DNA of 64,000 nt from NCBI GenBank assembly GCA_028688055.1, contig JAQTYZ010000003.1, positions 1,191-65,190 on the forward strand, read 5' to 3'. The position numbers and the translations under genes were made by a program. Below are positions 26,096 to 48,964 of this stretch, in pieces. Every line of letters begins with the position of its first letter. Positions within the stretch are counted from its first letter, which is position 1. A model generated the notes under the pieces. It was given only the letters and a program-made list of their open reading frames with translations, searched no databases and had not been told where the DNA came from. The DNA is from Patescibacteria group bacterium. Lineage in GTDB: Bacteria; Patescibacteriota; Patescibacteriia; Buchananbacterales; UBA6539.

Positions 26096-26110
26096 AAGTG
26101 ATTTTTTTCC

Positions 26111-26140
26111 TTGCACCACGTGACCATTTTCTGCTATAAT
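26111..26140 (+). promoter_or_regulatory. sigma70-like promoter (TTGCAC, 18-nt spacer, TATAAT) heading the large accessory gene block
   Basis: TTGCAC at 26111-26116, an 18-nt spacer, TATAAT at 26135-26140. About 60 nt upstream of the 26203 gene. Confidence 0.5.
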
Positions 26141-26202
26141 ATTGATAACTTCCGGCAAATGGAGGTAGTAATCTATCAGCCTAATTTTTAGGAAAATAAA
26201 TA

Positions 26203-27030
26203 ATGGCCTCCCCGGTCAAACAACCTGATAATCTTAATGTTTTAGAAGAGATTTATCATGAGGTCGACTCAAAAAATGCGCCAAAAAAATCCGTTCATGA
26301 CAGCATTATTGGCTATCTTAAAGAGAATCCGAAACGAGTCGATGGTTTTTTGTCACTGGTGGTTATTTTTTTTGGCTTAGTGGCGATTATTTGGGGTTGG
26401 AGTCGATTCCAATATGGTCTGATCAGTTATCGATTGCCAAAGCCGGGGGATGCGGTAAAACTTTTGACCGCAAGCCAGCCGCCACCCCAAGATTTATTGG
26501 GTTTGAAAGGAAAAGATACGGATAATGATGGGCTGTCAGACTATGATGAAATTTATATTTATGGTACTAGTCCCTACCTGCCCGATAGCGACTCCGATGG
26601 CATTCCGGATAAGACGGAAATTGCTAATCACACTGATCCAACCTGCGCGTTAAATAATAACTGTTTTTCCCTGACAGCCCTAAACGCTGTTAATCCGGCT
26701 GACCGTAGTGACGCAACTAGTTTAACTTTTGACGCCAAAACCGAGACGATCAAGCTGCGCCAAGCCTTGTTAAATTCAGGTATGAGTCAATCAGACTTGG
26801 ACCAATTGAATGACGCTGATTTATTGGCGGCTTACAATGAAGTTATTGCCGGACAGGCTGGTTCGACGACGGCAACAATCCCTAGTAATGTTGAAGATTT
26901 AACACCAGATCAAATTAGAGCCGTGTTAAAAACGGCCGGCGTTAGCGATAGTGTTTTAAAAAATATTTCGGACAGCGATTTAATGAGTTTAGTTAAACAG
27001 CTGCCAACGTCAACACCGCCCACTAACTAG
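26203..27030 (+). CDS. single-pass membrane protein with thrombospondin-type-3-like Ca-binding Asp motifs
   Basis: TM (LSLVVIFFGLVAIIWGW), then DTDNDGLSDYDEIYIYGTSPYLPDSDSDGIPDKTE (DxDxDG repeats). It lies directly upstream of the giant gene, with a 5-nt gap. Confidence 0.6.
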   Translation: MASPVKQPDNLNVLEEIYHEVDSKNAPKKSVHDSIIGYLKENPKRVDGFLSLVVIFFGLVAIIWGWSRFQYGLISYRLPKPGDAVKLLTASQPPPQDLLGLKGKDTDNDGLSDYDEIYIYGTSPYLPDSDSDGIPDKTEIANHTDPTCALNNNCFSLTALNAVNPADRSDATSLTFDAKTETIKLRQALLNSGMSQSDLDQLNDADLLAAYNEVIAGQAGSTTATIPSNVEDLTPDQIRAVLKTAGVSDSVLKNISDSDLMSLVKQLPTSTPPTN

Positions 27031-27035
27031 CTTCA

Positions 27036-30000
27036 ATGCCAAAAATTAATATTTTTTCAAAAATAATTTCAGTCGGCCAAAAGTTATTTTTTGTTTGGTC
27101 ACAAAAAACTTTGACGGTTTTGGTCATTTTTAATATGTTGGCGACATCATTGGCACCAGCCTTGGCTTATCCGGTAACAGTTGATACCTCAAGTCTACAG
27201 CCGTTAGCTAGTGCGGTTGGTAATGCCTTTTTAAAATTGACCTTGACCGACGTTGCCCACGCTCAGCCATACGCCAGTGGGTATGTTATGCCGGCTAACC
27301 CGATGTCGATAATAGTCAGTGATGATTTTACTCATACTAACCTAATTTATAATGAAACAGCGGCTGAGGCTCGCAGTGCGGCCCAGATCGCTTTAGACAA
27401 AGCAACTCAAGGCTTGAAGGAATCAGCTTTTTTGGCGGCCAATCAGACTTTGAATGCGATGATTAATAGTTTTGCCTATGATGTTGCGACTTGGTTAGCT
27501 AGTGGCGGCAAGGGCCAGCAGCCAATGTTTTTTAACCAAGGCTGGGGTGAATATATGAAATCGTTGGTTGATGACGCGGCGGGAAATTTTATTGAGTCAT
27601 TGGCTGGTAATTGGTTAGACTTTAATGTTTGTGAGCCGATTAATCCTTCGTTAAAAATCAGTATCGGTCTAGGCTTGTCCGATCTGCAGCGGCCGCGGAA
27701 GCCCCAATGTAGTTTAAGTGATATGGTTCATAACTGGAGCTCATTGATTAACGATAAGAATTTTTTGAATCGCTTTGATGTTATCTATGATCCTGATCAA
27801 AATGATATCGGCATCGCTTTTAGTATTTTTAATAAATATAACCAGGAAATTTCCGACGAGCTTGACCAGGGCATAAAAGATCGAACTGAAGGCGGTGGTT
27901 TTAAGGCGGTGGTGGCAAAAATTTCCAAAGCGATTAAAACGCCGTCGTCGTTGGTTTTTTCGCAGGCGACTCGATTGACATCAGAACAGATTGACCAATC
28001 AGACAAAAAGGTTCAGTTTGGACCAATCGTCCTCAACGCGGTTGATACTTTTGTTAGCACGTTAATCGGCAAGCTGTTCCAGCGTTTGTTTAAAGAAGGT
28101 TTAGCCGGTGACTCAACGTCAAATAATCCGTCGGCCAGCGGTTATGGTGCTAACTTATTAAGCAGTTTGCTAGGTAAGTTGGGCCAGAATAATAATGATT
28201 TATATAGTGCCAACCAGACTAGTCTCCAGGGGCAGTCCTCGGCCCAAGTGCGTTTCCTTGATTTATTGACGACTGGCAATAATGATAGTAAGCCGATGGA
28301 TGTTTTGACTAAATTGACTTTTTGTCCTGATCCAAAAAATCCGGGACCGGACGAATGTGTTATTTTGCCGTCTTTTGCGCAAGCCGTTCAACAGGGGATG
28401 ACCTTAGCCGAAGCGATTAATCGCGGTTTAATTGACGGCAATGCGCCTTTTGGTCGACAAAGCAATGATCCAACCGCCCTTTATAGTGGCTTGCCGTACC
28501 GGAGTGTTGTTATTTTAAGAACTTATCGAATTGTGCCGGTAAGCTGGGAAGTCGCCGCTAAGGCAATCAATAAATTCGATGGCGGTAAAAATATTAGCTT
28601 GAATGATTTAATTGCTCAATATCAAGATCCGACGGCTGAATATTATGATTTGGTTAACCCGAATTGGGTGCTGGTGGCGCCGGATCATTTGTGTAAGGAA
28701 ACCGGTTTTGGTCCAAAAATTTTATATAACGAAAGTGTTAATGGTTTTGACGCCAATCAAAATGGAAGTTTTAATGATACCGGTGATATTCAGCCTAATC
28801 GCTTAATCGGTCGGGCTGAATATTGTGCTGACTATCAGTCCTGCATTCAAAAAAATGATGATGGTTCCTGCCAGTATTATGGTTATTGTGCTGAAGAGCG
28901 GCCGGTTTGGGATTTTAGTGGTGGTAGTTGCAAGCCTTATTATAATACTTGTCAAACTTTTCAGGCGCCAGCAGGCGATACCGTTAGTTATTTAAAGAAT
29001 AGCTTAAACTATAACGGGTGTAGCGCTGATAATGCCGGTTGTCAGTGGTACTGTCAGATTTTAAATCCAATTAATAATGTTTGGACTTGCCAGAATCAGA
29101 CGGAGCGGGTGCTGAAGGCCTGTTCTCAGAATGGCGGCTGTAGTGTTGCGGCAACTTGTACTTTAAGTCAAGGTGAGACAGCTTGTACCGATGCTAACTC
29201 GTCAGTTAATCTAACGATCGCTTCAGCTTGTGACTCTGGTTCGCGGTGGTGGAACGATGCCACTAGCAAGTGTGATGTTGATAGTGCTTGTACTATTGAA
29301 AAAGGGGCGGTCAGTTGTTCAACGGACAGTTGCTTTGAACAAGCCAATCTGTTAGCTAATGGCAGTTTCGAAACCCCGGCGGCCAACCCCGGCGGCTTGG
29401 CTAGCGGCTGGACCACCGACAGTGGAACTTTGGATTTTTTTGATCGGGTTAGTGGGGCCACGGAAAAAATTTACGATGGAAAGAGCAGTATTAGGTTTTA
29501 TACCGCCGGTCAGTTAATCGGCGCTGGCGACGTTAAATCAATTACCTCAAGTTCGTTAGCTTTAGCGACTTCTGGAACCTACACTTTTTCCGCTCGCGTT
29601 TACAGCAAGTTAAATGCCGGCAACATTACTTTGTCAGTTTATGACAGTAGCGGTCAGATTGCCTCGCGGGTGATTAGCGATAAAAATCGTTGGCAAATTG
29701 TTAGTTTTGATTTTACTACCAGCCAAGGTTCAGTTTGGGTCGTCGCTAGCATTGCCAGTCAAGGAACATTTTTAAGCGGCACGGCTTGGTTTGACGATTT
29801 CCGAATTACGCCCAGCTGTGTGATTAATCCGGTCACGCTGAATTTAGTTGGAACAGTTGAGCAAAATGAAAGCAAAATTCATTTGGATCGCGATGCTTCA
29901 GATTGTCCGTCGGAGGCGGCCGGCTGTTCGCAATTTATTAGAACCATTCCAAATTCGGGGACCAATATTGTTGATAATTCCAGCTTTGAGGATTGGCCAA

Positions 30001-33000
30001 ACCCAACCAGTCTGCCAACGGGTTGGAATCTTGGCGAAAATAATTCGGCGATAACAACCGAAAAGGTAAACGACAGTCCAATTGATAACTATAGTTTGAA
30101 AATAAATAACGATGGCGTTAATGGCACTTGTCGTGATTTTGATAGTGGCGTTTTGTCAGCGATGAAACCTAATACGACTTATCGGGTTTCCTTCTGGGCC
30201 AAGAGTGATTCCGATTTAGCCGAAGCCGACGGCCAGTGGTACGCTGAAATATTATCCAATCACGTGCCTAATGATTATTATTGTAGTCTGGATAATACGG
30301 CTAATTGTGATCCGTTTAATGAAGCAACTTGTAGTGCTGTTGGTAAGGGTGTTTGTGTTGGTGACTGGCAATTGCTACAAATTTCGTCAAATCAATATTT
30401 ATCATTGACCGCCAACTGGCAGCGATTTGTTTTAAATCCAATTACCACCCGAGCGGCTGGGGTTGATTTTAAATTTGCAATTGATAATTGTTCAACCGAT
30501 ACTGCTAATCCGATCTATCTTGACGGTGTTCAGATTGAAGAAGTTTCGACCAACAATCCCGTGCTGACTGATTATAAAGATTACGGTCAGACTAATTTAA
30601 CTTATCTCAAAAAACCGCCGGTTTATTTAAATTGTACCGGGGACTCAACTGATTCTGACGCTTGCGCCAACTATGCGCCATATTGTAAACCCGAAGAAGT
30701 CGGCTGTCAGGCGTTCGCGCCGCTGAGTGGCGGAGCGAAGGTCCCTGCCGTGATCAGACCAACTGATTTTTGTCCGGCCGAATGTGTTGGCTACCAAGCC
30801 TACAAGCAATCGGCGACGCCATTCGAAACGCAGCAAACTTTAGAATACTTTATTTCGTCAACCGCTAAACAATGCAACGCGTCAGCCGCCGGTTGCGATG
30901 AATTTACCAACTTAGATGAAGTGACTCAAGGTGGTGAAGGACGGGAATATTACAGTTACTTAAGGTTGTGTCAGAAGCCAGCTGATGTAGGCGCGAGCTG
31001 CCAGAGTTTTTACACTTGGCAGGGTTCCGATGAAACTGGTTTTCAGTTAAAAACTTACAGTTTGACCGGTGTGGCCGATGCCGCTGGACATCCAATTCCG
31101 ACACCAGCCATTAGTAATATTGATAGTTGGCCTGATCGGTGGTGCAGTGATAAGACGCTGGACGCGAATGGTTTGCCAAATTGTTGCGATGCTGCTGACG
31201 ACTTGGTTGACAATCCTTTTTGCAAACAGTTTTTTGCCGGCGATGGCTCCGTTTCTTATCAAATTTATGATAATACAATTAGTTGCTCGGACGACTGTCA
31301 TCCGTATCGAAAAACCTCATTAGGCGAAGATCCAACGGTGGCCGAGACGAATTGTAATGAGAGTCATGGGGTGTGGGACAACGGCGCTTGCGTTTATCAA
31401 GCGATTCCGGGGCAGGGCTTAAGTTGTTCCGCCAATTTTGCCGGCTGTCGTGAATATCGTGGCAACCAGAGCGGTAACATTTACACCGCCTTGACCGATA
31501 ATTTAGAATCGGGCGAAACCGCTAATTGGATTGACGGCGTTATTAGTAGTGAGGCTTTGAGTGTTGGCGGTCATTCCTTAAAGAGTACTGACAACGGCCT
31601 TGGCGGTCAGCAGGCGGCAACCTTTGTTGGTGATTTAGGAACTGTTTGTAGTGATAATTTACCGGCCTGTTCAGCCACGGTGACCACAAATTGTTATGAT
31701 CAAAGTACTATTAGGTGCTGGGTAAATACCGGTGGTCGATCGTGCCGCGTTAATGTTGGCGATCGTTATTGTGGTGTGGCGGGAAATACCGTTAAGAAAA
31801 GCAAGTCTTATATTCTAAATTTTTGGGCCAAAGCCAGCTCCGCTGTCCAAAACTTCACCGTGGAAATTGGTGATCGAGCAATACCAGTTAATAATATTAC
31901 GATTGGCCAAAGTAATCTCAATGCTGATTGGGGTTATTATTCAATGGGTCCATTTACCGTTGATGATAAGCCGGCTTTTGATCTGACCTCGGCTCAGCTT
32001 AGATTTAAATTGGGTACCGCTGTTACTTTTTATCTTGATAATATCCAGCTCAAAGAAGTTACTGGCCACACGTATGTTATAAAAAATTCATGGCAGACGC
32101 CGATGAGCTGCGACACTAATCCCTATCTTAATCCGCCGATCGCCGCGCCGCAGTATATGTTAAATTGTCAGCAGTATCGCAGTTCCACTGGGGCGATTTA
32201 TAATTTGAAATCATTTGATTCATTGTGTCGCGAGACGGCGGTTGGTTGCGAGGCGATGATCGATACTTATAATTCAGCTTCGCCGGTTGAACAGAAATTT
32301 AATCCCAACGACACCTTATCTGATGTTACTATCCCAGCTGATAAATTGGTTTACCTGGTTAATCGTCCGGAATTTCAATGTGCTTCAACGGTCAAGGGTT
32401 GTGAGGCCGTTGGGTTACCATCATTAAATACTTCTAATAATGTTACCGCGTATAGTACAGCCTATAAAATAAATGATCCTGACAAGTACGACACTATCCT
32501 TTGTAAAAATGAAGAAGTTGGTTGTCAGGAGTATGTTTCGGAAACTGGGTCCGATTACTTTAAGGCTCCGGGCGATAAGGTTTGCGAATATCGAACCATC
32601 CCGGGAACGACCAATTTAGGTTGGTTTATCAGAGGCTCAGTTAGTAATAATCCAGATTGTCCCGTTACTCAGCCGAGCGTTGGGGCGCTTCATCCTGATG
32701 GCAAAAAAGGTTTTGCCGGCTTATGTCCCAGTGAATATAACACGTGCACCCAATTTATCGATCCGATCAATAACGTTGGTAAAAATTTGCTTTATAACGG
32801 TAACCTCTCGGACATCAATAATGACGGCACGCCTGAAGGCTGGGATATTTTAGCAAGCCAGGATGGTCTGGTACAGTCTTTTAAATTAAAAGCGAACACG
32901 TCATATACCCTTAATTTTGTCGCCGACATTAATAACATCAGAGGCAGTTCAGCTGATTTGACGTTCACCGTCAATCATTGTCCCGGCATTTTTTCGTATG

Positions 33001-36000
33001 ATCATTCTTTGATTTATGATCAGGCTGATAATACCTTAATGAAAATGCCGGAGGATACCTATAACCAAGATAACCGCACCAGCGATAATACCAGTCCGGA
33101 TTATATTGAAGGTCTGTCTAACTTTCGTCAATATTCGGCCCGATTCTCGGTACCGGAAGACCAGGATTGTCAGGTTCAGGTTAAGTTGGCCGGTGCCACG
33201 GTTGCGGCTCTAAAAGCAAAGATTAAACAAGTTGGTTTAAGGGAAACCGGTGTTTACTATGCCCTGGGCAATTCGGTTGATAAAATCGGTTGTAACGGAA
33301 TCGTCAATCCGGAAAAGGGTTGCGTTTTATTCAATGATCGCAGTGGTGTCAATTATAAATTAGGTGAAGACGATATCAGCTATTTAGCGTTTGACGCCGA
33401 TGTCAGTGGCCCGGGAGTAAACGGTGGCGTTGGGGTGACCGACTGTGCTGGTAATTGCGATGCCAATGCGGTGATTAATGTTCGTCCGGATCGAACTTGT
33501 GAATCATGGTTAAATTGTAGTGTCGAAGGAACTTACCTCGATAACAAAGGTATTGCCAGAAAATATTGTGCACAAATTGGTTTGTGCGATCGGATGGATG
33601 CCAGCGGCCAATGCACCAATCAGGTCATTGGTAATAAGCAGTCATTGTTTGGTGATCCGGAACAAATTAAAAATTTGAGCGGTTATAGCAGCCCTGGCCT
33701 CATCTTTACCCGAGGAATTTGTGTTGCCCCGGCGGACAATAAGGGTATGACTTGTAACCAAAATTCGGATTGTGCTACTGACGCCAGCGGGGTTTGTGAT
33801 AAAAGTGTTTCGGGGGTGATGTCGTTTGAACAGATGATTCAACAAGGGCAGTCGTTCCGAGTCCCAAATGGTAATTTTGAATTAGCTTTTGGCGCCACCA
33901 CCGAACCAATCGGTTGGTCAACGATTATTGAAGGAACCAATACTGAACCGGTTGAATGGTATGACTATAAATTTAGAGTTGACCGGGATGTTAATAATGT
34001 GATTGAAGGTACCGGTTACCTGCGACTAAATTCTTTCTGGGAAACACAGTCTGAAGAAATTGATGTGGCGGAAGGCGAATTAACAACTATCTCGGCGATG
34101 ATTAATACGCAATTTCTCGAGAATCCGGCTAGTCAGTTAAATCCGACCGGTCAAGCTAAGGCTCAGATTTTAGTTAAAGCTTTGGATAGCAACGGTGCGG
34201 CGGTCGCCATTAAAGATGCCAGTGATGTTGCTTATCCGATGAAATATAATGGTTGGCAGTTGTTACAAAATGCCAACACGGCCTTAGAGGCTCAGGCCGG
34301 TTTGGATTGGCAACAGAAATCATTTACTTTTAAGATGCCAATTGGCGCGGTTAAATTTAAAATCAAGTTGAGTAATTATATTGATGAAGCCAAGTGCATT
34401 GATGCGGAAAGGTATAATCGTAAAGCCAGTAATTGTTCACTTGGTGGCTACTCTTTATTTGATTCAATTTCGTTAAAGCCGATTTTGAAAGTCAGAAATG
34501 AATTACCCGATGATTCGGTTGCGCGCAGTTGCCGTTTGTACCCGACGTCCGATGCGCTGGCCTGCGTGAATATGAAGGATAACGCTGTTTACTTTGGCCA
34601 GTACGGATACTGTGTTACGACGGATCCGCAAAATCCCAGCCAGTGTTTGCAATGGTGGCCGGTTGATCAAATTCAAGGTGAAACCTTGGATGAAGTAACG
34701 TCGGGTTATAACGATCGCGTGCCGCTGGATTATTGCACGCAAAAAAAAGATGTCGTCATTCGCGTTGGGGCCAATGCAACGTTGACGACGCTTGATTTGG
34801 GTAACTCAAATTTGTCAGGCAATTATACTTCAATGGTTAATTCTAGCGGTCAGCAAATGAAATTTTCTCAATTTAATATCAATGATGATTATCGAGCCCT
34901 GTTCCGCTATCCGTATGTTCAGTATTTACAAGTTCATGGTTCAATATCGGGAGGATCATTATTAAGTGGTGCGGGACTTGTCCCGACCATTTTTATCCCC
35001 ATCCCTTATGGTGCGAGGTTGTACAAAGATCATACCTGTTGGAAATTTATTAGTATTTTAGATAATCCAGGTTTTTCGGATATTGCCAACGGGGCGCTTT
35101 CCGGTACAAATGATTTTATTACTAATGGTTTATTCAGTAACCCTCTTTTGAGTGGCATTTTGGGTGATGTAACTTTTTGGCGACCAGGTGACCCAGGACA
35201 CGAAAGTGATGATTATGGTTCTTATTGTTGGAGTACTTCGCCGGGTGAAGACTGGGGTGGTTTTGCCGCTCTGGGCCTTGGCATATCAATTCCGCTTGGC
35301 GATTTTGGTATTGGGGCAGTTGTGTCACTCGGGTTCCCTTATAAGATGGCGCAAGCAACATCAATCTTGACGAGTTTTAATACCGAGCTAAGTAAATTGG
35401 TTGGAACCATGGTTGGTTTGGCCGGACCGGTGGCTGCCAAAATTATTACGGATCAAGATGAGTCAACTGGTAATACCACCAGCGATCCGGTGCCGGACTT
35501 AGAGGGTGATATTCTCGGCATTTCGGCGCAAATGCTGGGTCAAACAAATGGCGCGACCGCTCTCTTAGCGCCGGTTAGAGTTAACGGCGACGTGCCGGTG
35601 AAATATTGTTCCGAACTTGTTAGAGTCGTGACGTCAGCCGGCTCAAACCGAGGTTTTGCTAATCGCTTAACGGCCGGTAGTGGCTTTTTACTTAACGATA
35701 CGATTGACGGCCAACCGCGGCAATATCAATATTATAAACCGTTTGATTTTAGAGAATTGTTAGCCTATCCTAATCCAATGGATTATTATTCTTCCGATTT
35801 TCAGCCCTTTGGCGGTCTCGTGGCACCGACTAACAGTCAGTATCCGACCGCGTGGGACAGTAAATCAAGTCAGTATCGCCAGCCGTTATTTTTTGAGCCG
35901 CCGATGATGACCAGTTACAAAGCACCTTATCAGGCCCGAATGGGTGAAACACATACGGCCGGAAGCATTGAGCAAATTTTTGGCAAAAGCTATGGTATTT

Positions 36001-36644: not shown

Positions 36645-36704
36645 AACGAGGAGTTTGTCAGTCTTAAGCGTCAAGTCCGTAAGCAGGGTAACTAAAACGA
36701 AGCA

Positions 36705-39700: not shown

Positions 39701-40136
39701 AGATAAGGGTCACTATGATACCGCTCGAATGGTTACCTTGGAAAATGGTATGGCGCGCTGGTCAACGGAGGCGGAACACGCTGCCGCGGTCGCTAATGAG
39801 AATTTGAAGAAAGCCAGTCGTAACTTTTTGCAGAATACTAACCGCTTAGGGTTTGGTGGTGACGATGCGGCTGGTAATTATAAATTGGCAATGTCTGGAA
39901 AATTAACCTTAGCTGGTTTAGGGGATAAAGAACTACAGTTTAGACTTGACCGAGGTGAGTTTAATCCAAGCACGTTGTCAAAAATTGGTTCGGATATTGA
40001 AGGCTTAGAAGATATGGTTAGGCGTGGTTGGCTGACAAGAAAGACGATTGATACCATTAAACAATTTGCGCAAAGAAAAACGGTTGACGCGGCTTACAGT
40101 GAACTTTATAAGCAGGCTAAAAGCGCAACAAAATAA
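36705..40136 (+). CDS. VirB6/TrbL-like polytopic membrane protein with a roughly 700-aa hydrophilic coiled-coil C-terminal extension
   Basis: Signal peptide plus at least 6 hydrophobic helices in the first 330 aa (VirB6-like topology). The remainder is charged and helical. It sits in a block with the VirB3/VirB4 homologs. Confidence 0.5.
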   Translation: MLNIKNKKITVGIILVLVMFGFLSFGIKAVRATDPPPGMTEVPGPIIRPATPVVAPVVPITGSKNKSSDSQSSGFMVWLVSWTVLPIIRLEGVIISLEAYVLNTFMGYNGFVDSQAVVLGWTQVRDVANLFFVLILLAISLGTILRIESYNFKKMLPKVLIMAVLVNFSRTISGLIIDFSQVIMMTFAASFAGRDGDGHLVAILNIRSILLSGSQVGTNQVALSPTDLIASGILAVVMLLIAMIVLLVMLVVIIMRIVMLWLLVVLSPLPFILSAFPQGQKYAQQWWQEFTKYIIVGPALAFFIWLAFAVAGSSAGNQSGKISVDAMGDTTITAASLGGELKPNSQLAGVTISQPADKPGAAAGPATGLDTKVINEVAQPDQFISFIIAIGMLMGGLMLTQQLGVAGGSFAGSMANKIRQGRPLIAPLKLFGKGLGKAEKMLYGGTGIGLDPRRVFRGLSEHMTAWNDRMERQGATKGFGKAKEMVAGQRVGPNGEIINLEKGRSYPRNLARRFFGLGGMMMSSPADFMDNYGTFRGAWKGAKTLFKGTSITELEDWEHEKREKNDKLSRQEKLVHVGNVSEKGREQLITEAIDKNAESYEAGSHFFATEEVGGKTTVISMSPAELDAEMGKVKKADLKKYGLDPEILSDPKAGGIDVNDPESVDKFKKAFFGYHAGKMINDTGTYVDSANTIQKLTDTELELAGERYYDDQVKIKDDEISRVATGGPTDQQVQVRQNELESINQQMLKVLKSIESSNRTATKEEKFVLSELADKGERLGGKAVTDAVTGLQHFGLSSTDRDNIQQITPADFVGRAALTPEEFKQLGEKDDLGRSKLEQLKENRHDLSDEITLAKMKPEDRRIQQNKINDGIKVAREKLQKDDMEKKKRAIDVPIGYEALSHARAAEREELSKLPDSMEWTEIESELFSAMQMKNTARVRALMKKAAVDYNDNEIWRSFGYSQDNKGMKEFGDKELVGGLGMNRQEMLKFMDDVAYINEDKGHYDTARMVTLENGMARWSTEAEHAAAVANENLKKASRNFLQNTNRLGFGGDDAAGNYKLAMSGKLTLAGLGDKELQFRLDRGEFNPSTLSKIGSDIEGLEDMVRRGWLTRKTIDTIKQFAQRKTVDAAYSELYKQAKSATK

Positions 40137-40142
40137 AACCAA

Positions 40143-41480
40143 ATGATTATTACCGAACAACTTCTGAACGAATTTGAGCTGCATTCCCGCGATGTGGTCA
40201 GATTTAATAATGTCGCTGAGGCCAAGACGTTTGTCAAAGAAATTTGGCCGGATATTTCGTCCGATCAAGATTGGGCCCGGGAGCATCCGAAGCTCTACGA
40301 CCGACTTAAAAAGCTTAATAATATTAACAATATTTTGTTAATATCAACAATGAATGATGAAGGTTTTTTGGAAATATGTGAGGCTGGTTTGGAGGTGTAC
40401 TTTACCGATATGATTGAAGACATAGATTTGTGGGAGTTAATTCGGGCGAAGTTGGTGGCGATGGTTGATTTTGAAGCCCGGGATAAGTTTAAAGAAAAAA
40501 TTAGAAAATCGCTGTTGCGCAACAAGGGGGTTATTTCATCAAGAAAAATTTTAAGAAATAATCAAGAGTATACGCCGTCAATTGCCGAATGGCTGGTCGA
40601 CTATACGAGCGCGGTTGGAGTCAGTGAAGCTGGTACGGTAAAAATGAATGAGTATTTTATCGCCAGTAAAAACTACCAGCAATTAAACGGCAAAGAAAAA
40701 GATGCGGTCCGACAGCTGATCAGTATTTATGAAAGATTGAAAAAATCTTCCGCCAAACCGGACGGATTGGAGGAGCGAGTTTTGGTTTCTGAAAATGGTC
40801 GATTTGCCATTTTTCGCGACGGCAGTTTTGAAAGCATTGATCCTAAATTGCAGGCCTTATTAAAGGCAGCTAATATCAGTATTAGTGGTTCGTCAGATGA
40901 AGACCAGCCGCCGGTTATCATTAGTCAGACAGCCGCGGCGGTTGAAAAAACTGAAGGGCTTGAAAAAGATCAAGCGCGAACAATGACCGTGTCGGAACAG
41001 GAAATTTATAATGCTTATCAAGGTGATCCAAGGCAAAAAAGTGCCATTGCCAAAGAGGAAGAAAATTTAACCAAGAAATTTGGCACGGATGAGGTAAAAT
41101 TAAGGGCCGAGTTTTATCAGGCCGTTCAGAAAAAAAATATTAACTTAACCATCGCTATTATTCGGCGCCTGGCCGCGCTTGGTGAATTGGTTAAATTTTT
41201 GCAAACGGATGTAAAATTAAATAATTTTTTGACAAAAACTTGGGACAAGCGATATGGACAAGCTTTTGCTGATGAATTTGTTAAAAATCCCGACCAACCT
41301 AAGTTCATCAAATTATTTTTGCGTTATATTTTAGAGGAACGTTTGGGGATGAATTCTAGCGATGCCGCGCGCGTGGGACTACACGTGGCCAATGTTTTTG
41401 TAAATTCCGGTAAAAAAAGTTATAATAAAGTGGCTTATTTCGATATTAAGACTAAAACGTTTAATTGGTTTGAGGGGTAG
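40143..41480 (+). CDS. hypothetical cytoplasmic protein (445 aa)
   Basis: Long ORF with coherent composition and no recognisable motifs. It lies within the T4SS-like block. Confidence 0.6.
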   Translation: MIITEQLLNEFELHSRDVVRFNNVAEAKTFVKEIWPDISSDQDWAREHPKLYDRLKKLNNINNILLISTMNDEGFLEICEAGLEVYFTDMIEDIDLWELIRAKLVAMVDFEARDKFKEKIRKSLLRNKGVISSRKILRNNQEYTPSIAEWLVDYTSAVGVSEAGTVKMNEYFIASKNYQQLNGKEKDAVRQLISIYERLKKSSAKPDGLEERVLVSENGRFAIFRDGSFESIDPKLQALLKAANISISGSSDEDQPPVIISQTAAAVEKTEGLEKDQARTMTVSEQEIYNAYQGDPRQKSAIAKEEENLTKKFGTDEVKLRAEFYQAVQKKNINLTIAIIRRLAALGELVKFLQTDVKLNNFLTKTWDKRYGQAFADEFVKNPDQPKFIKLFLRYILEERLGMNSSDAARVGLHVANVFVNSGKKSYNKVAYFDIKTKTFNWFEG

Positions 41481-41817
41481 GGTTTAGGATGGTGGGAAGT
41501 AGGAGAGTAGGTGTTAGCCTTAACAGTCACGTCATACAAGGCATGCTAAATTCTCTGAGAATGACAAATAAAGTAGTGTCATCCTGTCCGCCGGCTGGCG
41601 GATCAGGATCTAGGAGATAAAGAACCCTGTCATTGCGAGCCACGACGTTAAGCCATGGGCGAAGCAATCCCCCTCTAATGAATTAACTAGGCAGATCGCC
41701 ACGTCGTCCTAGTTGACGCAGGTGAGATGGACTCCTCGCGATGACGCAGAGCTAATTATTACTAATAACTAACAGTTACTCCTGGTTTTGGGGACAGGTG
41801 AGGAAAGGAATAATAAA
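41481..41817 (+). ncRNA. structured 5' leader of metK (candidate riboswitch or cis-regulatory RNA, possibly SAM-responsive)
   Basis: 337-nt ORF-free gap containing nested helices: an outer GUCAUUGCGAG/CUCGCGAUGAC, inner CGACG/CGUCG and GGCGA/UCGCC, and a separate AUCCUG-(CCGCC GGCU GGCGG)-CAGGAU element. An anti-SD-like ACUCCUGG lies about 20 nt before the GAGGAAAGGA SD. No SAM-I consensus is present. Confidence 0.3.
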
Positions 41818-42990
41818 GTGTTGACCAAAGAAAATCATAAAAGCTACGTGTTTACTTCAGAGTCCGTCACGGAAGGACATCCTGATAAAATTTGTGATCA
41901 AATTTCTGACGGTATTTTGGATGCGGCCCTGACCGATGATCCAATGTCGCGCGTGGCCATTGAAACCCTGGTAACCACCGGCTTAGTCGTCGTGGCCGGC
42001 GAGATGACTACTTCGACCTACATTGATGTCCCAAAAGTTGTTCGTAAAATCATTAAAGATATCGGTTATACTGATCCGACCATTGGGTTTGATGCCGAAA
42101 ATTGCGCTGTCGTTACGTCAATTGATGCCCAGAGTCAGGATATTTCTCAAGGTGTCGATGAATTGGCCAATAAAGAGCAGGGTGCCGGCGATCAAGGAAT
42201 GATGTTTGGCTATGCCACTGATGAGACGCCGGAATTTATGCCTTTGCCAATTGTTTTAGCGCATAAATTAACTCAGAAATTGGCGGAAGTAAGAAAGAAT
42301 GGGACGCTGCCATGGTTGCGTCCTGACGGCAAAGCGCAGGTGAGCGTCGAATATGAAGGCGGTAAGCCAAAACGACTGACGGCCGTTGTTGTTTCAACCC
42401 AGCACACCGCCGAGACATCGCTTGAGACAGTTGAAAAAGAAGTGAAGGAAAAAATAATTGTCCCAATTTGTGGTGAATTTATTGATGGTGAAACAAAATA
42501 TTTTATTAATCCGACCGGCCGGTTTGTCATTGGCGGACCGCACGGTGACAGTGGCGTGACCGGTAGAAAAATAATTGTGGACACTTATGGCGGACACGGC
42601 AGTCATGGTGGTGGGGCATTCTCGGGTAAAGATCCCTCAAAAGTTGATCGCTCAGCTTCTTATGCTGCTAGGTATATTGCCAAAAATATTGTCGCGGCGG
42701 GAATTGCTAAGCAGTGTGAAGTCCAAATTGCCTACGCGATTGGCGTCGCCGAACCGGTTTCATTGCTCGTTAATACCGGCGGTAGCGGCATAGTGGACGA
42801 GGAAAAAATTGCTCAAGCCGTCCGAAAAATTTTTCCGCTAAAACCGGCCGACATCATTAAACAATTGAATTTGCGTCGACCCATCTACATCAAAACAACT
42901 TGTTATGGCCATTTTGGCCGGACGGATCAAGATTTTACCTGGGAAAAGACTGATAAAGTAGACGAATTGAAAAAAGAGCTGGGACTTTAA
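41818..42990 (+). CDS. metK: S-adenosylmethionine synthetase
   Basis: [52 protein letters not shown]. Start assigned to the GTG after the GAGGAAAGGA RBS; the ORF track extends to the TTG at 41788. Confidence 0.92.
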
Positions 42991-43016
42991 TAAAAATTAA
43001 AAATAAATGTTAACCA

Positions 43017-44123
43017 ATGATTCTGGAAGATAAAAATAATGCTGATGATTTTTTTCGGGCTTTGGGACAAAATCTAAGCGCGGCTAACCCTCCAGATGAT
43101 GAAATTGTTTTCCGAGATGATGATGGTAAATTGAAAATATTAAAAGGAGGGGCAATTTTGGATTATAGTCAAGATGCCGTTGGGGCCGAAGAAAAATCCG
43201 GGGTTAAGCTAGAAGCGGTTAGCGAGTCAAATGCTGTCTTAACTAACGTTTTGCCCCAGCCAGATTCAAAATTGGATAATATTGCGGAACAGATTATTAA
43301 GGACTCAGGTGTTACCTCAAAGGATGATGATTATCGTAAAAGATTTAAAAGTATTATTTTATCTAGGCTTAAGGATGTCAGAGATCAAGTACAGACTCGA
43401 GAAGCGCTGCTTAGTTCGTCAATGGTGGGCGGTGTTGACTTAAATAATCAACAGGTAGATAAAATACTTGGTTTAATCAGCGCTAGCCTTGATCAGGTTC
43501 ACAGTGATATTAGAACAGCCATAAATAACGAACCATTTTCTGATTTAAGAGCTGAGGCGCAGCAGATATTGTCGGAACCTGAATTAGCGCAGAAGCCTGA
43601 ATTTAAGCCTGTTATCCTGGTACCAGAAAAAAAAGTTGAAGTTGAGCCGCCAGCCAAGCCAGTAGCAATACCAGCCCCGATGGGCTTTAGCACTAATCCC
43701 GTGACGGCCAGACTAGGAGCAAACCCGCCTAAAATAACGCCCATTGTTGAAAAATCAATTGGCAAGCCAAAAGTTGAAGATGTTCGGTTCAAACCGCGCT
43801 TAACCGGTCCGGTGGAAGAGATTAAAAGTATGAAGTTAGTTGATTTCAGACGATTAGCCCAATCGCCAGCACAGGCCATTGAAAAGATTATTGGAAAAAT
43901 TGATTTACTTGAAGCGGAAGCTTTTACCAAAAAAACGGAAGCCATCAAAGCTTGGAAGCAAAATGAGATCAATCAAATGTATATTGAATTGGGTGATCAA
44001 AGTATGGAAGAGCGTAAGTCAATTTCGGACATTATTGCCGAGCGCCAGTCGGGGGGGCAACCGACTTTAACCGAAGAAGAAGTTGATGCGATTATCGAAT
44101 TAAATAAAAGGCTAAGATATTAG
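43017..44123 (+). CDS. hypothetical acidic protein (368 aa)
   Basis: ORF with a 2-nt gap to the next gene. Charged, with no TM. Confidence 0.55.
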   Translation: MILEDKNNADDFFRALGQNLSAANPPDDEIVFRDDDGKLKILKGGAILDYSQDAVGAEEKSGVKLEAVSESNAVLTNVLPQPDSKLDNIAEQIIKDSGVTSKDDDYRKRFKSIILSRLKDVRDQVQTREALLSSSMVGGVDLNNQQVDKILGLISASLDQVHSDIRTAINNEPFSDLRAEAQQILSEPELAQKPEFKPVILVPEKKVEVEPPAKPVAIPAPMGFSTNPVTARLGANPPKITPIVEKSIGKPKVEDVRFKPRLTGPVEEIKSMKLVDFRRLAQSPAQAIEKIIGKIDLLEAEAFTKKTEAIKAWKQNEINQMYIELGDQSMEERKSISDIIAERQSGGQPTLTEEEVDAIIELNKRLRY

Positions 44124-44124
44124 G

Positions 44125-44583
44125 ATGCAGCAATTTGTGGTGCCACAATTCATTGATGTCGAAGATAAAATTTTGGGACCAATTACCGTTCGCCAATTTA
44201 TTATTATTTTAGTCGGCGGTGGGATTGACTTTGTCGCTTATAAGCTGTCTGATTTTACCTTATTTTTATTGCAGTTCGTTATTGTGTCGTTGATAAGTTT
44301 TATTGTTGCTTTTATCAAAATAAACGGACGACCCATTCACTATTTTTTGCTTAATGTTTTTCAAACCGTTAAAAGACCGAAACGCCGGGTCTGGCAAAAA
44401 ATATTTTCGACCGCACTTTTGAAAAGCTATTTGAATATTAAGGAAATCAGATTGCCACCAACCATCACCACCAAGAATAAAGTGAGGGCATCGCGTTTAG
44501 CCGAGATGTCTTTGATTGTTGATACCGGTGGGGTTTATCAGGGTGAAAAAGAACCGCCAAATTCGACTAATGAATTAGTATAA
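44125..44583 (+). CDS. VirB3-like small membrane protein (two TM helices)
   Basis: 152 aa. A hydrophobic hairpin (FIIILVGGGIDFVAY...FLLQFVIVSLISFIVAFI). Its position immediately upstream of VirB4 is typical of VirB3/PrgI/TcpD. Confidence 0.45.
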   Translation: MQQFVVPQFIDVEDKILGPITVRQFIIILVGGGIDFVAYKLSDFTLFLLQFVIVSLISFIVAFIKINGRPIHYFLLNVFQTVKRPKRRVWQKIFSTALLKSYLNIKEIRLPPTITTKNKVRASRLAEMSLIVDTGGVYQGEKEPPNSTNELV

Positions 44584-44605
44584 GCCCGCTAATTTTTAAC
44601 TGGGT

Positions 44606-45286
44606 ATGAAGTCAAATAAACTAGCAAACAAAAAGATTAAGGCATCAACGCAACACTTTTTGGATGTGGCCGAGATTAAAGAAGACTGTGTGCTATTAAA
44701 AGATGGGACGTTGCGCGCTGTTTTACTGGTTTCAAGTATTAATTTTTCGTTAAAATCTGAAGATGAGCAAAATGCTATTATTGCGGCTTATATTGGATTT
44801 TTAAATTTTTTGGAATTTCCGCTCCAAATTGTCATTCAGTCGCGTCAGCTCGACATCGATGGTTATCTTGATCGGTTGAAAAAGATTGAAAAAGAGCAAA
44901 CCAATGAATTATTACGAATTCAGACCGCTGAGTATCGCCAGTATGTCAGTGAGTTAGTTGACTTGGGTGAAATTATGAATAAGCGATTTTATGTTGTCAT
45001 TCCTTACGATCCATTATCTGACAAACAAAAATCATGGTTTAAGCGTTTACTTGGCTTGTTTACCGCCGCCAAGGAAGTTAAATTGAATCAAGACGCTTTC
45101 AGCAAAAGACGACACGAATTATTTCAACGAGTCGACCATATCTTATCCGGACTTGCTAGTATGAGTCTAAAATCAGTGGTTTTGGATACCCAGAGTTTGA
45201 TTGAACTTTATTATAATACTTATAATCCCGATGTTTACAGTAAGGAAAAATTGGTGGAGATTAATAAGCTTAGGATTGAAGAATAA
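44606..45286 (+). CDS. VirB4/TrbE N-terminal domain protein (split VirB4, part 1)
   Basis: HFLDVAEIKEDCVLLKDGTLRAVLLVSSINFSLKSEDEQNAII fits the CagE/TrbE/VirB N-terminal pattern (..tkdGsl.a...l.g.d..s.see..). It ends 2 nt before the ATPase ORF, in another frame. Confidence 0.55.
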   Translation: MKSNKLANKKIKASTQHFLDVAEIKEDCVLLKDGTLRAVLLVSSINFSLKSEDEQNAIIAAYIGFLNFLEFPLQIVIQSRQLDIDGYLDRLKKIEKEQTNELLRIQTAEYRQYVSELVDLGEIMNKRFYVVIPYDPLSDKQKSWFKRLLGLFTAAKEVKLNQDAFSKRRHELFQRVDHILSGLASMSLKSVVLDTQSLIELYYNTYNPDVYSKEKLVEINKLRIEE

Positions 45287-45288
45287 TT

Positions 45289-47217
45289 ATGGCTATAAGA
45301 CCAAGCGACATTTTGCGTGAAGAAAAAATGGCGGCCATGGAGCCGTCGGATAATTCCACCCCCGAAGAAAAAAGAGCGAAAGAAAAGCAGGAACTTGAGA
45401 GTCAGAAGATAGTTTTGGAAGAAGAAAAGATTTATCGTGAGGGGGTAGTATCCATTAAGGATTTAATTGCTCCGGCGGCAATGGAAGTGACGCCGACGTT
45501 TATTAAGTTGGGTAATAAATTTGTTCGAACTTTGTTTGCGATTGGTTATCCGCGCTACATTGCTGTTGGCTGGTTCGCGCCGATTATTAATATGAGTGTG
45601 ACTTTGGATATTGCGATGTTTTTTTATCCGGTTAAGTCCGATATTATTTTGAAACAGCTTCGAAATAAAGTTGGTGCTTTGGAAGCGCAGATTTTGGCCG
45701 ACCGAGAAAAAGGTGCCCCGCGTGATCCAATTAGAGAAACCGCTCTGCGCGATATTGAAAAATTGCGGGACGATTTAACACAAGGGGTTGAACATTTTTT
45801 TCAATTTGGTTTGTATGTTACCATTTACGCTGATTCTAAAGAAAAATTAGACAGTATGACTGGCGACATTGAGTCGTTATTCGGTTCTCGTTTAGTTTTT
45901 TCAAAAAAAGTTTTGTATCAGGCCGAACAAGGTTTTAACTCTACTCTGCCGTTAGGTAACGATGAATTGATGATTGGTTTTAATATGAATTCATCGCCGG
46001 TGGCTTCGTCATTTCCATTTATTTCCTCGGAGCTTACATCCGATGAAGGAATTCTATATGGTATTAATCGGCACAATAATAGTTTGATTTTATTTGATCG
46101 ATTTTCGTTGCAGAATGCCAATACGGTTGTTTTTGCCACCTCCGGGGCTGGAAAAAGTTATGCTATTAAACTTGAAGTTTTACGAACGATGATGTTTGGG
46201 ACGGATGTTATTGTTATTGACCCTGAGCGGGAATATAAACATTTAAGCGACGCCGTCGGCGGAACTTATGTCAATATTTCTTTAAGTTCAGACAGTAAAA
46301 TTAATCCATTTGATTTGCCCCGAGCCGTTGGGGAGCAGCGAACGTCAGACGTTATTCGCGGTTCAGTTATTACCATTAAAGGTTTAATCAGATTAATGCT
46401 TGGCAAATTAACTCATCAAGAAGATTCAATTATTGATCGCGCCCTTTTGGAAACTTACGCTAAAAAAGATATCACCTCAGAATCAGATTTATCAAAAGTT
46501 GAAGCGCCGATTATGCAGGATTTTCAGGATGTTTTGGAAGGAATGGAAGGTGGTGCTGATTTAGCCCTTAGATTAAAAAAATATACTCAGGGTACTTTTT
46601 CGGGACTATTTAATAGCCCAACAAATGTGGATATGAAAAACCAGCTGGTTATTTTTTCTGTTCGAGATTTAGAAGATGAATTAAGAGCGATGGCGATTTA
46701 TACCATTGTTAATTACATTTGGAATGTGGTGAGATCGGAATTAAAAAGACGGATCTTAATTATCGACGAGGCCTGGTGGTTAATGCAAAACGAAGATTCG
46801 GCCAAGTTTATTTACGCCTTAGTCAAACGCTGCCGAAAATATTATTTAGGGGTTACCAATATTACTCAAGATGTTAACGACTTTTTGTTGTCACCTTATG
46901 GGCAGGCCATTGTTAATAATTCGGCGATGCAATTATTAATGAGGCAGTCACCGGCTTCGATCGAATTAGTCCAAAAAACATTTCTTTTGACGGAAGGAGA
47001 AAAATATTTGTTATTGGAATGTGGTGTTGGTGAAGGAATATTTTTTGCCGGTGATAAACACGCGGCGATCAAAGTTGTTGCTTCTTATACTGAGGATCAG
47101 CTCATTACTTCCGACCCGAGACAGATTTTGGAAATTGAAGAGGCAAAAAAAGAATTTGAGAAATCGCAGGGAGACAGTGGCCTTGGCGAAGAGGCGCTAA
47201 ACAACCCGAATAATTAA
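45289..47217 (+). CDS. virB4: VirB4/TraC/TrbE-family type IV secretion ATPase (part 2, with Walker A and B)
   Basis: TPTFIKLGNKFVRTLFAIGYPRYIAVGW (VirB4 central block), Walker A VVFATSGAGKSYAIK, Walker B RILIIDEAWWLM. 642 aa. Confidence 0.85.
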   Translation: MAIRPSDILREEKMAAMEPSDNSTPEEKRAKEKQELESQKIVLEEEKIYREGVVSIKDLIAPAAMEVTPTFIKLGNKFVRTLFAIGYPRYIAVGWFAPIINMSVTLDIAMFFYPVKSDIILKQLRNKVGALEAQILADREKGAPRDPIRETALRDIEKLRDDLTQGVEHFFQFGLYVTIYADSKEKLDSMTGDIESLFGSRLVFSKKVLYQAEQGFNSTLPLGNDELMIGFNMNSSPVASSFPFISSELTSDEGILYGINRHNNSLILFDRFSLQNANTVVFATSGAGKSYAIKLEVLRTMMFGTDVIVIDPEREYKHLSDAVGGTYVNISLSSDSKINPFDLPRAVGEQRTSDVIRGSVITIKGLIRLMLGKLTHQEDSIIDRALLETYAKKDITSESDLSKVEAPIMQDFQDVLEGMEGGADLALRLKKYTQGTFSGLFNSPTNVDMKNQLVIFSVRDLEDELRAMAIYTIVNYIWNVVRSELKRRILIIDEAWWLMQNEDSAKFIYALVKRCRKYYLGVTNITQDVNDFLLSPYGQAIVNNSAMQLLMRQSPASIELVQKTFLLTEGEKYLLLECGVGEGIFFAGDKHAAIKVVASYTEDQLITSDPRQILEIEEAKKEFEKSQGDSGLGEEALNNPNN

Positions 47218-47223
47218 TTTTTT

Positions 47224-47823
47224 ATGAACATGAGCAGAAGAAACAAAATAATCATTGGCGTCGCAGTTTTGATTCTAATTGTTTTATTAATTTCATTTTT
47301 GGCGTGGTGGTGGTATGACCGAAAGCAGGCGGCCAATTCTTTAATAAATACCAATAGTACCGCTGGGCAGTTGCCTGGCGAATTGCCAACGGCTTCAAGT
47401 GGTTTACCGACAACGACGGTTGTCGTTAAACCGGATCAAGAAGCGATCATTAAGGCAGTGGCGATGACCTTTGCCGAGCGTTTTGGCAGCTATTCCAATG
47501 AAATTAATTTTTCTAATCTTGATGACTTGCAAAATATTATAACGGTAAAAATGAAAACGTGGGTTGATAATTATAAGGTTAGTGAAGTTGCCAAAATTAG
47601 CGGCAGCAACTATTATGGTATCACTACTAAGGCACTGTCCGTCAAGATTAATTCGATGGATGACATAGCGGGACGGGCGGAAGTTGTCGTTCAAACTCAG
47701 CGCGGAGAAGCTAAGGGAAGTTCAATTAATCCCAAGATTTTTTATCAGGCCATTAATCTGTCAATGATTAATGACGGCAGTGGTTGGAAAATTGATTCAG
47801 CCGATTGGCAAGCCATTAAATAA
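47224..47823 (+). CDS. bitopic membrane protein (N-terminal TM plus roughly 170-aa extracytoplasmic domain), possible VirB8-like component
   Basis: TM IIIGVAVLILIVLLISFLAWWWY. Its size and topology fit VirB8/TcpC-like proteins, but there is no motif-level support. Confidence 0.3.
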   Translation: MNMSRRNKIIIGVAVLILIVLLISFLAWWWYDRKQAANSLINTNSTAGQLPGELPTASSGLPTTTVVVKPDQEAIIKAVAMTFAERFGSYSNEINFSNLDDLQNIITVKMKTWVDNYKVSEVAKISGSNYYGITTKALSVKINSMDDIAGRAEVVVQTQRGEAKGSSINPKIFYQAINLSMINDGSGWKIDSADWQAIK

Positions 47824-47853
47824 TAATTTTTCAACATAGCGCAAACTTGAGCT

Positions 47854-48513
47854 ATGTTGAAGCTAGCCATAAATACTTTAGTAAATTTATTTTTTCCAGT
47901 TTACTGTTTAGCTTGCGGTAAAACTGGGGAATGGTTTTGTCAGAGCTGTGTCAGTAAATTGCATTTTTCAACAGAGTCGCTAGCGGTTAAAAATAATCGG
48001 CACGCAACTGATGGCATTTGGGTTGTTATGGCGCCCGGTCAAACCAGCGTCGAAAAGCTGATAAAATATTTTAAATATAGTGGTGTCAAAGACATTGGAG
48101 AAATTCTGGGGAGCCAAGCGGGCGATTTCCTTAAGGCAAAATTTAAGGAATTGCCGCAACTGAGGTTTGATGCGGTAACTTCCGTACCAACCTCAAAGCG
48201 ACGTTTTAAATGGCGAGGTTACAACCAATCGGAAATATTAGGCCAGGTAGTGGCAACAAAGATTGGTCTTGAATATATTGATGGTCTTCAACGTGTGAAA
48301 TATATTCGGCCACAGGTTGGATTAAATTCTAAAAATAGGGTAAATAATGTTAAGAATAATTTTGCTGTAGCGTTGGAATTCGAGCCGATTAATAAGAATA
48401 TCTTGATTATCGATGATGTCGTGACTACCGGTTCAACCATTAATGAATGTGCGGCAGTTTTAAAAAAAAGAGGCGCTAATTTAGTTTGGGGTGTGGCAAT
48501 CATCAAGGGTTAG
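47854..48513 (+). CDS. comFC: ComF-family (ComFC) phosphoribosyltransferase-domain competence protein
   Basis: N-terminal CxxC...CxxC zinc finger (CLACGKTGEWFCQSC) and PRTase motif ILIIDDVVTTGSTI. Confidence 0.8.
   Translation: MLKLAINTLVNLFFPVYCLACGKTGEWFCQSCVSKLHFSTESLAVKNNRHATDGIWVVMAPGQTSVEKLIKYFKYSGVKDIGEILGSQAGDFLKAKFKELPQLRFDAVTSVPTSKRRFKWRGYNQSEILGQVVATKIGLEYIDGLQRVKYIRPQVGLNSKNRVNNVKNNFAVALEFEPINKNILIIDDVVTTGSTINECAAVLKKRGANLVWGVAIIKG

Positions 48514-48871: not shown

Positions 48872-48964
<93 letters not shown>

Follow-up and report, generated by a model that had tools for sequence, protein, structure and literature searches.

A chromosomal type IV secretion locus of Patescibacteria and its conserved giant neighbour gene

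A chromosomal type IV secretion system (T4SS) without a relaxase occurs across Patescibacteria and is related to the monoderm MPF-FATA conjugation systems (Quinonero-Coronel et al. 2025, PMC12102498). TrsD is its most abundant component in the phylum, PrgI-type VirB3, VirB6 and VirB2-like pilins are included, and VirB8 detectable by profiles is almost confined to the class ABY1 (PMC12102498). ABY1 T4SS loci commonly carry comF, recG and radA, a functional coordination of the T4SS with these genes has been suggested, and ksgA is often found close to virB4 across the Patescibacteria (PMC12102498). The same study noted that monoderm T4SSs rely on surface adhesins and found no PrgB-like adhesin in Patescibacteria. 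Southlakia epibionticum requires its T4SS to grow as an epibiont, and deletion of comEC abolishes its competence but not its viability. Here we analysed a 64-kb stretch of contig JAQTYZ010000003.1 of a Patescibacteria group bacterium (the window; positions are counted from its first letter), in which a gene for a giant protein stands directly before a set of T4SS genes.

We found that this gene block is an ABY1 instance of the known chromosomal T4SS of Patescibacteria, and that its core layout is not new. As in the loci described for the phylum (PMC12102498; S. epibionticum SEML1_0006-0019, Wang et al. 2023, PMC10633639), VirB4 is accompanied by a separate TrsD, a PrgI-type VirB3, VirB6 and VirB2-like pilins, the locus is chromosomal with no relaxase or coupling protein nearby, and its neighbours include comF, recG and radA, as in ABY1, and ksgA. 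The Saccharibacteria locus has a pilin array, a peptidase and a lysozyme directly 3′ of virB4. In the present locus the pilin genes stand 10 kb before the core, and cell-wall-type domains are represented solely by the 3D domain of a pilin fusion. A clear structural VirB8 is also present, in contrast to S. epibionticum, where none was found. The likeness to the MPF-FATA conjugation systems (pCF10 PrgH/I/J/L with the adhesin PrgB; pGO1 Trs with TrsD; CTn2 CD1110) lies in a putative dependence on a surface adhesin and in the lack of an outer-membrane core. The locus differs from them in having no relaxase, coupling protein or origin of transfer, in the presence of pilin genes, and in a VirB6 with an extra domain of ~700 amino acids (aa).

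A preliminary description, made from the letters of this DNA, had read the block as a minimal secretion machine in a layout not described before. The second part of this holds in a narrower form: the relaxase-less T4SS with comF, recG, radA and ksgA is published, but the association with the giant gene, the TSP3 gene and metK is not discussed there. The main texts of PMC12102498 and PMC10633639 mention neither a giant protein nor metK next to a T4SS, and metK, CBM and TSP3 had no match in a part of the PMC12102498 supplement. Within the searchable literature, the giant/TSP3 module, the structural VirB8, the fusion-linked module of VirB6 tail, u445 and u368 (two accessory proteins introduced below) and the insert of S-adenosylmethionine (SAM)-cycle genes apparently have not been described.

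Channel, motor and accessory proteins

The open reading frames (ORFs) of the block were searched against Pfam and NCBIfam profiles, and the domain survey of the window took in every ORF from 120 aa upward. Every ORF of the preliminary description was recovered at its place on the + strand. Those that make up the giant/TSP3 pair, the channel, the motor and the accessory genes are listed below.

26203..27030, + strand: TSP3-repeat single-pass membrane protein (Pfam TSP3_bac, 5.5e-10; bacterial, calcium-binding type; transmembrane (TM) segment 44-70)
27036..36644, + strand: giant protein of 3202 aa with 104 Cys (CBM_4_9 three times, 3.4e-20, the sole Pfam hit)
36705..40136, + strand: extended VirB6 (Pfam TrbL/VirB6, 26.6 bits, cutoff 25.9)
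40143..41480, + strand: u445, a soluble 445-aa protein and T4SS accessory (conserved after VirB6 in 21/46 loci)
43017..44123, + strand: u368, an acidic soluble 368-aa protein (present in 40/46 loci, directly 5′ of the PrgI gene)
44125..44583, + strand: VirB3 homolog of the PrgI family (Pfam PrgI, 4.9e-9, 37.1 bits, cutoff 27)
44606..45286, + strand: TrsD, a separate homolog of the VirB4 N-terminal domain (NCBIfam TrsD/TraD, 4.7e-6, below the 200-bit cutoff)
45289..47217, + strand: VirB4 ATPase, monoderm (MPF-FATA-like) (NCBIfam conju_CD1110, 5.7e-107, 358.8 bits, cutoff 325)
47224..47823, + strand: VirB8-like bitopic protein of 199 aa (N-terminal TM helix and NTF2-like domain; VirB8 fold)

To place these genes in context, relatives were collected by a VirB6-based scan with one genome per species, which gave 562 relatives, and 80 loci with 10-kb flanks were examined. 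Upstream counts refer to the 52 loci with at least 8.5 kb 5′ of VirB6 and downstream counts to the 46 loci with at least 8 kb 3′ of it. A reverse sample was drawn from metagenome contigs that encode a conserved motif from residues 2470-2570 of the giant protein; 65 of its loci extended at least 2.5 kb past the giant gene. The homologs of the genes neighbouring the locus came from metagenome-assembled genomes of Patescibacteria.

Profiles supported both VirB6 and VirB3 as they had been assigned, and for VirB6 the predicted structure agreed, with TrwI/VirB6 and DotA as its best matches; the homologs of this protein carry PF04610/PF19590. The polytopic TrbL/VirB6 membrane domain occupies residues ~70-420 and is followed by a folded, Cys-free C-terminal domain of ~700 aa, in agreement with the long extension noted earlier. 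The fold of this domain was predicted confidently, it has no TM-like segment, and it is probably cytoplasmic. Members of the extended VirB6 category (PMC12857230) likewise combine at least five hydrophobic helices with a large hydrophilic C-proximal domain; here, however, the C-terminal fold had no match in a structure search of the PDB with the predicted model, and in relatives it is either split off or fused to the 445-aa family. VirB3 was found to be a membrane hairpin of two helices, with TM-like segments at 16-34 and 36-54.

The assignment of VirB4 was also backed by profiles, with an additional match to Pfam P-loop_TraG (5.5e-29). What had been taken for a VirB4 split into two ORFs is actually the conserved pair of TrsD and VirB4 that is typical of Patescibacteria, since TrsD is described as a separate homolog of the VirB4 N-terminus (PMC12102498). 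Consistent with this, the TrsD ORF also matched positions 92-233 of the VirB4_plasma profile (1.2e-10), and a separate TrsD ORF of ~226 aa was present in 40/46 loci of relatives. Conservation of the two-ORF arrangement in relatives ruled out a broken VirB4 pseudogene. The bitopic protein that follows, previously described as VirB8-sized, indeed has the VirB8 fold, although it matched no Pfam or NCBIfam profile; an exact-sequence contig search with it returned a single 3.8-kb contig.

Extended VirB6, VirB3 (PrgI), TrsD with VirB4 and the VirB8-fold protein thus make a complete channel and motor set for a monoderm system, and we regard the identity of the block as a T4SS as settled with very little doubt. 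No relaxase, VirD4/type IV coupling protein (T4CP) or VirB11 domain was detected in the surveyed ORFs of the window, three of which had no Pfam match at all. The block is therefore not a conjugative element, as the preliminary description had already concluded from the lack of these three components.

The two soluble proteins that accompany the channel genes, u445 and u368, are taken to be parts of the machine, because relatives encode them in fusion with one another or with VirB6. An apparent fusion of VirB6 with u445 was found in locus L016 (946-5472), and apparent fusions of u445 with u368 in L009 (12862-14751) and L062 (12808-14907); the VirB6 tail, in turn, is a separate ORF in L054 (5062-6165), L060 and L071. 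The most conserved accessory gene is u368, with a conserved C-terminal region of ~110 aa (alignment A3). Both proteins are without a TM-like segment, and u445 contains one Cys and u368 none. Searches with u445 and with u368 gave no match in Pfam, NCBIfam or the PDB, and profiles of the two families covering 63 members likewise retrieved nothing from the PDB or Pfam.

The giant protein and its place in the locus

Across the 80 genome loci a one-strand order recurred that runs from the giant gene through VirB6, u445, in some cases metK, u368, PrgI, TrsD, VirB4 and the VirB8-like gene to comF or radA. A giant homolog stood upstream of VirB6 in 40/52 loci. Downstream of VirB6, u368, PrgI and TrsD were each found in 40 of the 46 loci, VirB4 in 39, u445 in 21 and metK in 18, where it lies between VirB6 and VirB4. 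Among the genome loci the gene after the VirB8-like one was comF in 11 and radA in 24. The reverse sample gave the same picture, with VirB6 downstream of the giant gene in 58/65 metagenome loci. The VirB6 proteins of relatives are only 25-47% identical, yet the adjacency of giant gene and VirB6 is kept. In addition, the TSP3 gene, which is separated from the giant gene by a gap of 5 nucleotides (nt), also precedes it in relatives wherever the upstream part of the locus can be read, and the order ksgA-TSP3-giant was seen in most metagenome loci that reach far enough upstream. Because more than 100 loci of relatives show this layout, it is not a product of chance, a concern that the preliminary description had raised for the juxtaposition of giant gene and secretion genes.

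The conserved parts of the giant protein include an N-terminal domain of ~600 aa and a C-terminal ‘WGDG’ module; it also contains Cys-rich linkers and CBM_4_9 modules. Its N-terminus has positive charge, a hydrophobic segment at 25-47 and then the sequence ALA-YP, and this signal-like segment is kept in homologs. When 16 full-length homologs were aligned, dozens of Cys were invariant and CBM_4_9 was the sole recognised domain. Clustered at 50% identity, the family comprises 1333 representatives, and 903 of these match at E≤1e-30; nearly all members are 2300-3800 aa long, with the conserved ~600-aa domain at the N-terminus. NCBI names the protein ‘carbohydrate binding domain-containing protein’ (MDD2807426.1), and the other members carry the same name or ‘hypothetical’. 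The whole protein and profiles of its N-terminal and C-terminal parts found no match in the PDB or NCBIfam, and a word-indexed homolog search with the N-terminus returned only three fragments. Furthermore, beyond CBM_4_9, no sequence or domain similarity to PrgB-type or other known adhesin families was detected, and its role as an adhesin is a matter of predicted function, not of family membership. In sequence it shows no relation to PrgB, and it is about 2.5 times as large as that protein.

The combination of 104 Cys, a Sec-type signal and carbohydrate-binding modules (CBMs) fits export by Sec with oxidative folding and does not fit passage through a T4SS. We infer that the giant protein is Sec-exported and folds with disulfides outside the cell, and its adjacency and domain content make a role as host-attachment partner of the T4SS plausible but unproven. 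Comparable arrangements are known from other host-dependent lineages. Omnitrophota, ultra-small and host-dependent as well, have genes for very large surface proteins beside type II secretion-like loci (bioRxiv 10.1101/2023.11.21.568195); they belong to another phylum, the neighbouring system is type II-like rather than a T4SS, no sequence relationship is shown, and their giant genes measure at least 25 kb versus 9.6 kb here. In episymbiotic DPANN archaea, large surface proteins rich in Cys likewise combine carbohydrate-binding or adhesion modules with a secretion or pilus system next to them (PMC6792436). Giant proteins of FhaB type have been noted in ABY1 and are a different family from this one.

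Displaced components and neighbouring genes

Further genes with links to the T4SS, and the non-machine features of the block, were found in the window.

14839..15594, + strand: DsbA-like thioredoxin (Pfam Thioredoxin_4, 1.6e-28; DSBA, 1.9e-18)
15597..16412, + strand: VirB2-like T4SS pilin paralog (Pfam T4SS_pilin, PF18895, 25.1 bits, just under the 26.6 cutoff)
16470..17696, + strand: VirB2-like pilin fused to a 3D domain (T4SS_pilin, PF18895, 27.2 bits, cutoff 26.6; 3D, 25.3 bits, cutoff 23.8)
26110..26141, + strand: possible promoter, TTGCAC, 18 nt, TGcTATAAT (extended -10; by-eye match)
41481..41787, + strand: intergenic region 5′ of metK (no recognised riboswitch)
41788..42990, + strand: metK, S-adenosylmethionine synthetase (three S-AdoMet_synt domains, up to 7e-67)
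47854..48513, + strand: ComF/ComFC-type phosphoribosyltransferase-like competence protein (TIGR00201 comF, 1.8e-29, below the 233.55-bit cutoff; Pfam Pribosyltran and DZR_2)
53201..54475, - strand: 424-aa protein with an N-terminal TM segment (no Pfam match)
54491..55567, - strand: membrane protein of 358 aa (match to hidden Markov model A7, built on 39 ORFs, E=5e-37)

The system within the window is larger than the block delimited at first, and it is not minimal, because two VirB2-like pilin genes and the DsbA-like gene lie 10 kb upstream of the T4SS core, with uvrA, leuS, femAB, sua5 and ksgA in between. The two pilins are 59% identical over 126 aa. The pilin-3D fusion has 12 Cys and three TM-like segments; its 3D domain may act on the cell wall and is the sole candidate for a VirB1-like cell-wall hydrolase, as no SLT, CHAP or M23 domain was found in the window. 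The DsbA-like protein is probably a disulfide-forming helper for Cys-rich exported proteins, and in 13 relatives its homolog lies directly 3′ of the VirB8-like gene.

Two membrane-associated candidates are encoded downstream on the opposite strand. In more distant relatives the A7 family, a ~200-aa ORF with no consistent Pfam match, separates the giant gene from VirB6; the 358-aa protein is its sole match in the window and lies 15 kb downstream of that usual place. This homolog also has a long low-complexity N-terminal extension. The neighbouring 424-aa protein is possibly linked to the T4SS, as suggested by a homolog (251 bits) in the single locus L009, where it follows closely on a pilin gene that is itself 3′ of the VirB8-like gene.

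The housekeeping gene metK looks like a passenger. In the window it is inserted between the accessory genes u445 and u368, which are adjacent or fused elsewhere. A longer insert was seen in L019 (13494-21850), with a PfkB kinase, S-adenosylhomocysteine (AdoHcy) hydrolase, metK, a cytidylyltransferase and three tandem proteins with phosphoenolpyruvate (PEP)-utilising domains, and ORFs sized like its PfkB and AdoHcy hydrolase genes precede metK in L013, L035, L040, L049, L064 and L070. At the window start lie folD and glyA of one-carbon metabolism (327-2470, - strand), which with metK supply a large part of a methyl cycle to a genome that is reduced. The leader proposed for metK was not borne out. 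The 41481-41787 region matched no Rfam family at gathering or E≤10 thresholds, its fold was not more stable than that of shuffled sequence (z = -0.93), and visual inspection turned up an 11-nt inverted repeat that has no second copy in the window. A SAM riboswitch or structured leader is thus not supported by the Rfam result and the fold score.

The promoter placed at the head of the block can be read by eye, but a consensus scan of the window did not list it; terminator-like sites in the window were no more frequent than chance level in a scan. Upstream, the block is flanked by the core genes uvrA, leuS, femAB, sua5 and ksgA, and downstream by tRNA-Ser, a DUF5673 gene, tRNA-Arg, recG and radA, the last two within 5 kb. 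Block composition is near that of the rest of the window, GC being slightly higher over 28000-38000 (the giant gene and the start of VirB6; 0.44-0.46) than in the flanks (0.39-0.42). GC skew is positive over the entire window, indicating that no replication origin or terminus lies inside it. A GIY-YIG domain ORF of 90 aa (48638-48910, + strand, 3.2e-14) overlaps the 5′ part of tRNA-Ser(GCT) (48872-48961) by 39 nt; its counterpart after comF in locus L005 is a weak match only (37 bits, 29% identity). A 1150-aa protein (59718-63170, + strand) with an N-terminal hydrophobic segment, Gly/Asn/Ser-rich repeats and a Cys-rich C-terminus is probably another surface protein; it had no Pfam match and no similarity to the giant protein.

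A candidate host-contact apparatus

Taken as a whole, the locus is best explained as an ABY1 host-contact T4SS with a Sec-exported giant adhesin, a reading that we favour with some reserve. The T4SS derives from monoderm conjugation machinery of the MPF-FATA type, with neither relaxase nor coupling protein nearby. The ~700-aa Cys-free tail of VirB6, together with u445 and u368, may form a cytoplasmic platform at the base of the channel, on VirB4/TrsD, and such a platform may replace the coupling protein. On the outer face, the giant protein would be exported by Sec, fold with disulfides outside the cell and act with the TSP3 membrane protein as a surface adhesin whose CBMs bind host cell-wall glycans. 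It would hold the T4SS or a pilus to the host cell, a role like that of PrgB-type adhesins in Gram-positive conjugation, and the T4SS would move macromolecules (protein or DNA, in one direction or the other) between epibiont and host. By contrast with these parts, metK, comF, recG, radA, ksgA and leuS would be housekeeping genes of a conserved neighbourhood and not parts of the machine. The further proposal, that giant and TSP3 proteins form a dedicated extracellular module for docking to the host cell wall, that the VirB6 tail with u445 and u368 is a platform replacing the coupling protein, and that the whole is a distinct epibiosis T4SS subtype, is put forward tentatively.

Several observations weigh against the host-contact reading, and they bear above all on whether the giant gene belongs with the T4SS. 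It was missing within 10 kb in 12/52 T4SS loci, among them L015, where ksgA is still upstream of VirB6, and 7/65 giant loci showed no VirB6 in the downstream sequence covered. In the reverse sample leuS and ksgA kept their synteny with the giant gene no less consistently than VirB6 did, so that adjacency by itself is no proof of a joint function of the giant protein and the T4SS; the coupling of the two that had been claimed at the outset stands as conserved adjacency and is weaker evidence than it looked. In relatives metK, AdoHcy hydrolase, PfkB and PEP-utilising enzymes occur inside the locus, which indicates that the neighbourhood tolerates unrelated genes. The conserved N-terminal domain of the giant protein had no detectable relative of known function in the PDB or NCBIfam, and its adhesin role is drawn from domain content and adjacency. 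Topology (the Sec signal and the cytoplasmic VirB6 tail) was judged by eye from hydrophobicity and charge, and the assignment to class ABY1 follows the names of the relatives (Buchanan-, Falkow-, Uhr- and Veblenbacteria), not a phylogeny.

These observations leave a possible, if less probable, explanation in which giant and TSP3 proteins are an independent surface adhesin or envelope protein and owe their position to inherited ABY1 gene order, as do leuS, ksgA and metK. The order leuS-ksgA-TSP3-giant is kept in the majority of metagenome loci whose upstream part is long enough, and housekeeping and metabolic genes are interleaved with the T4SS genes. Moreover, the shared + strand of the block, real as it is, does not set it apart, for the + run extends over 14839-51853 and takes in housekeeping genes. 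Against mere inheritance, the adjacency survives both the divergence of VirB6 and the change of the downstream flank between comF and radA, DsbA-like genes recur in the same loci, and monoderm T4SSs normally need a surface adhesin, of which no PrgB-like example has been found in Patescibacteria. That the giant protein is itself a substrate or effector translocated by the T4SS is very improbable. Its gene adjoins the channel genes, and some T4SSs secrete large proteins; yet the N-terminal signal-like segment is conserved in its homologs, and its many invariant Cys and extracellular-type CBMs speak for Sec, leaving this suggestion of the preliminary description weakly supported.

The same description had compared the machine with ComB-type systems. 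A DNA-uptake apparatus of this kind would import DNA from the host or environment and hand it to ComFC, RadA and RecG, and we consider it unlikely. The T4SS of Helicobacter pylori ComB also lacks a relaxase, coupling protein and VirB11 and is associated with competence functions; it is a diderm system with VirB7/9/10 homologs. In favour of uptake are the position of comF behind the VirB8-like gene, both here and in 11 loci, with radA in that place in 24, the presence of recG and radA within 5 kb, the lack of T4CP and relaxase domains in the window, and the coordination with comF, recG and radA suggested for ABY1 (PMC12102498). The competence link at this locus, however, consists of gene adjacency to comF and radA; these two genes, like recG, belong to the core set, further core genes lie in the same neighbourhood, and profile searches found no DNA-binding domain in the accessory proteins. 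In S. epibionticum, a member of the Saccharibacteria and the one relative open to genetic manipulation, the T4SS is essential whereas comEC is dispensable for viability, which implies that the T4SS has another essential role. A degraded or integrated conjugative element has in its favour that VirB4 is closest to the CD1110-type conjugal transfer ATPases, but the searches turned up neither a relaxase, T4CP or integrase nor repeat boundaries, and composition is near that of the rest of the window. Core-gene flanks and a chromosomal position conserved across the class rule it out to all intents.

Few machines have a demonstrated essential role in the epibiotic life of a patescibacterium in culture, and the T4SS is one of them. 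To our knowledge, the class ABY1 has no cultured member. If the giant protein is merely a neighbour, the finding amounts to one more instance of a described locus. For ABY1 the locus provides three widely conserved candidates: a giant sugar-binding surface protein, which could determine host recognition, a VirB8-fold subunit missed by profiles, and the fusion-linked, putatively cytoplasmic module of the VirB6 tail, u445 and u368.

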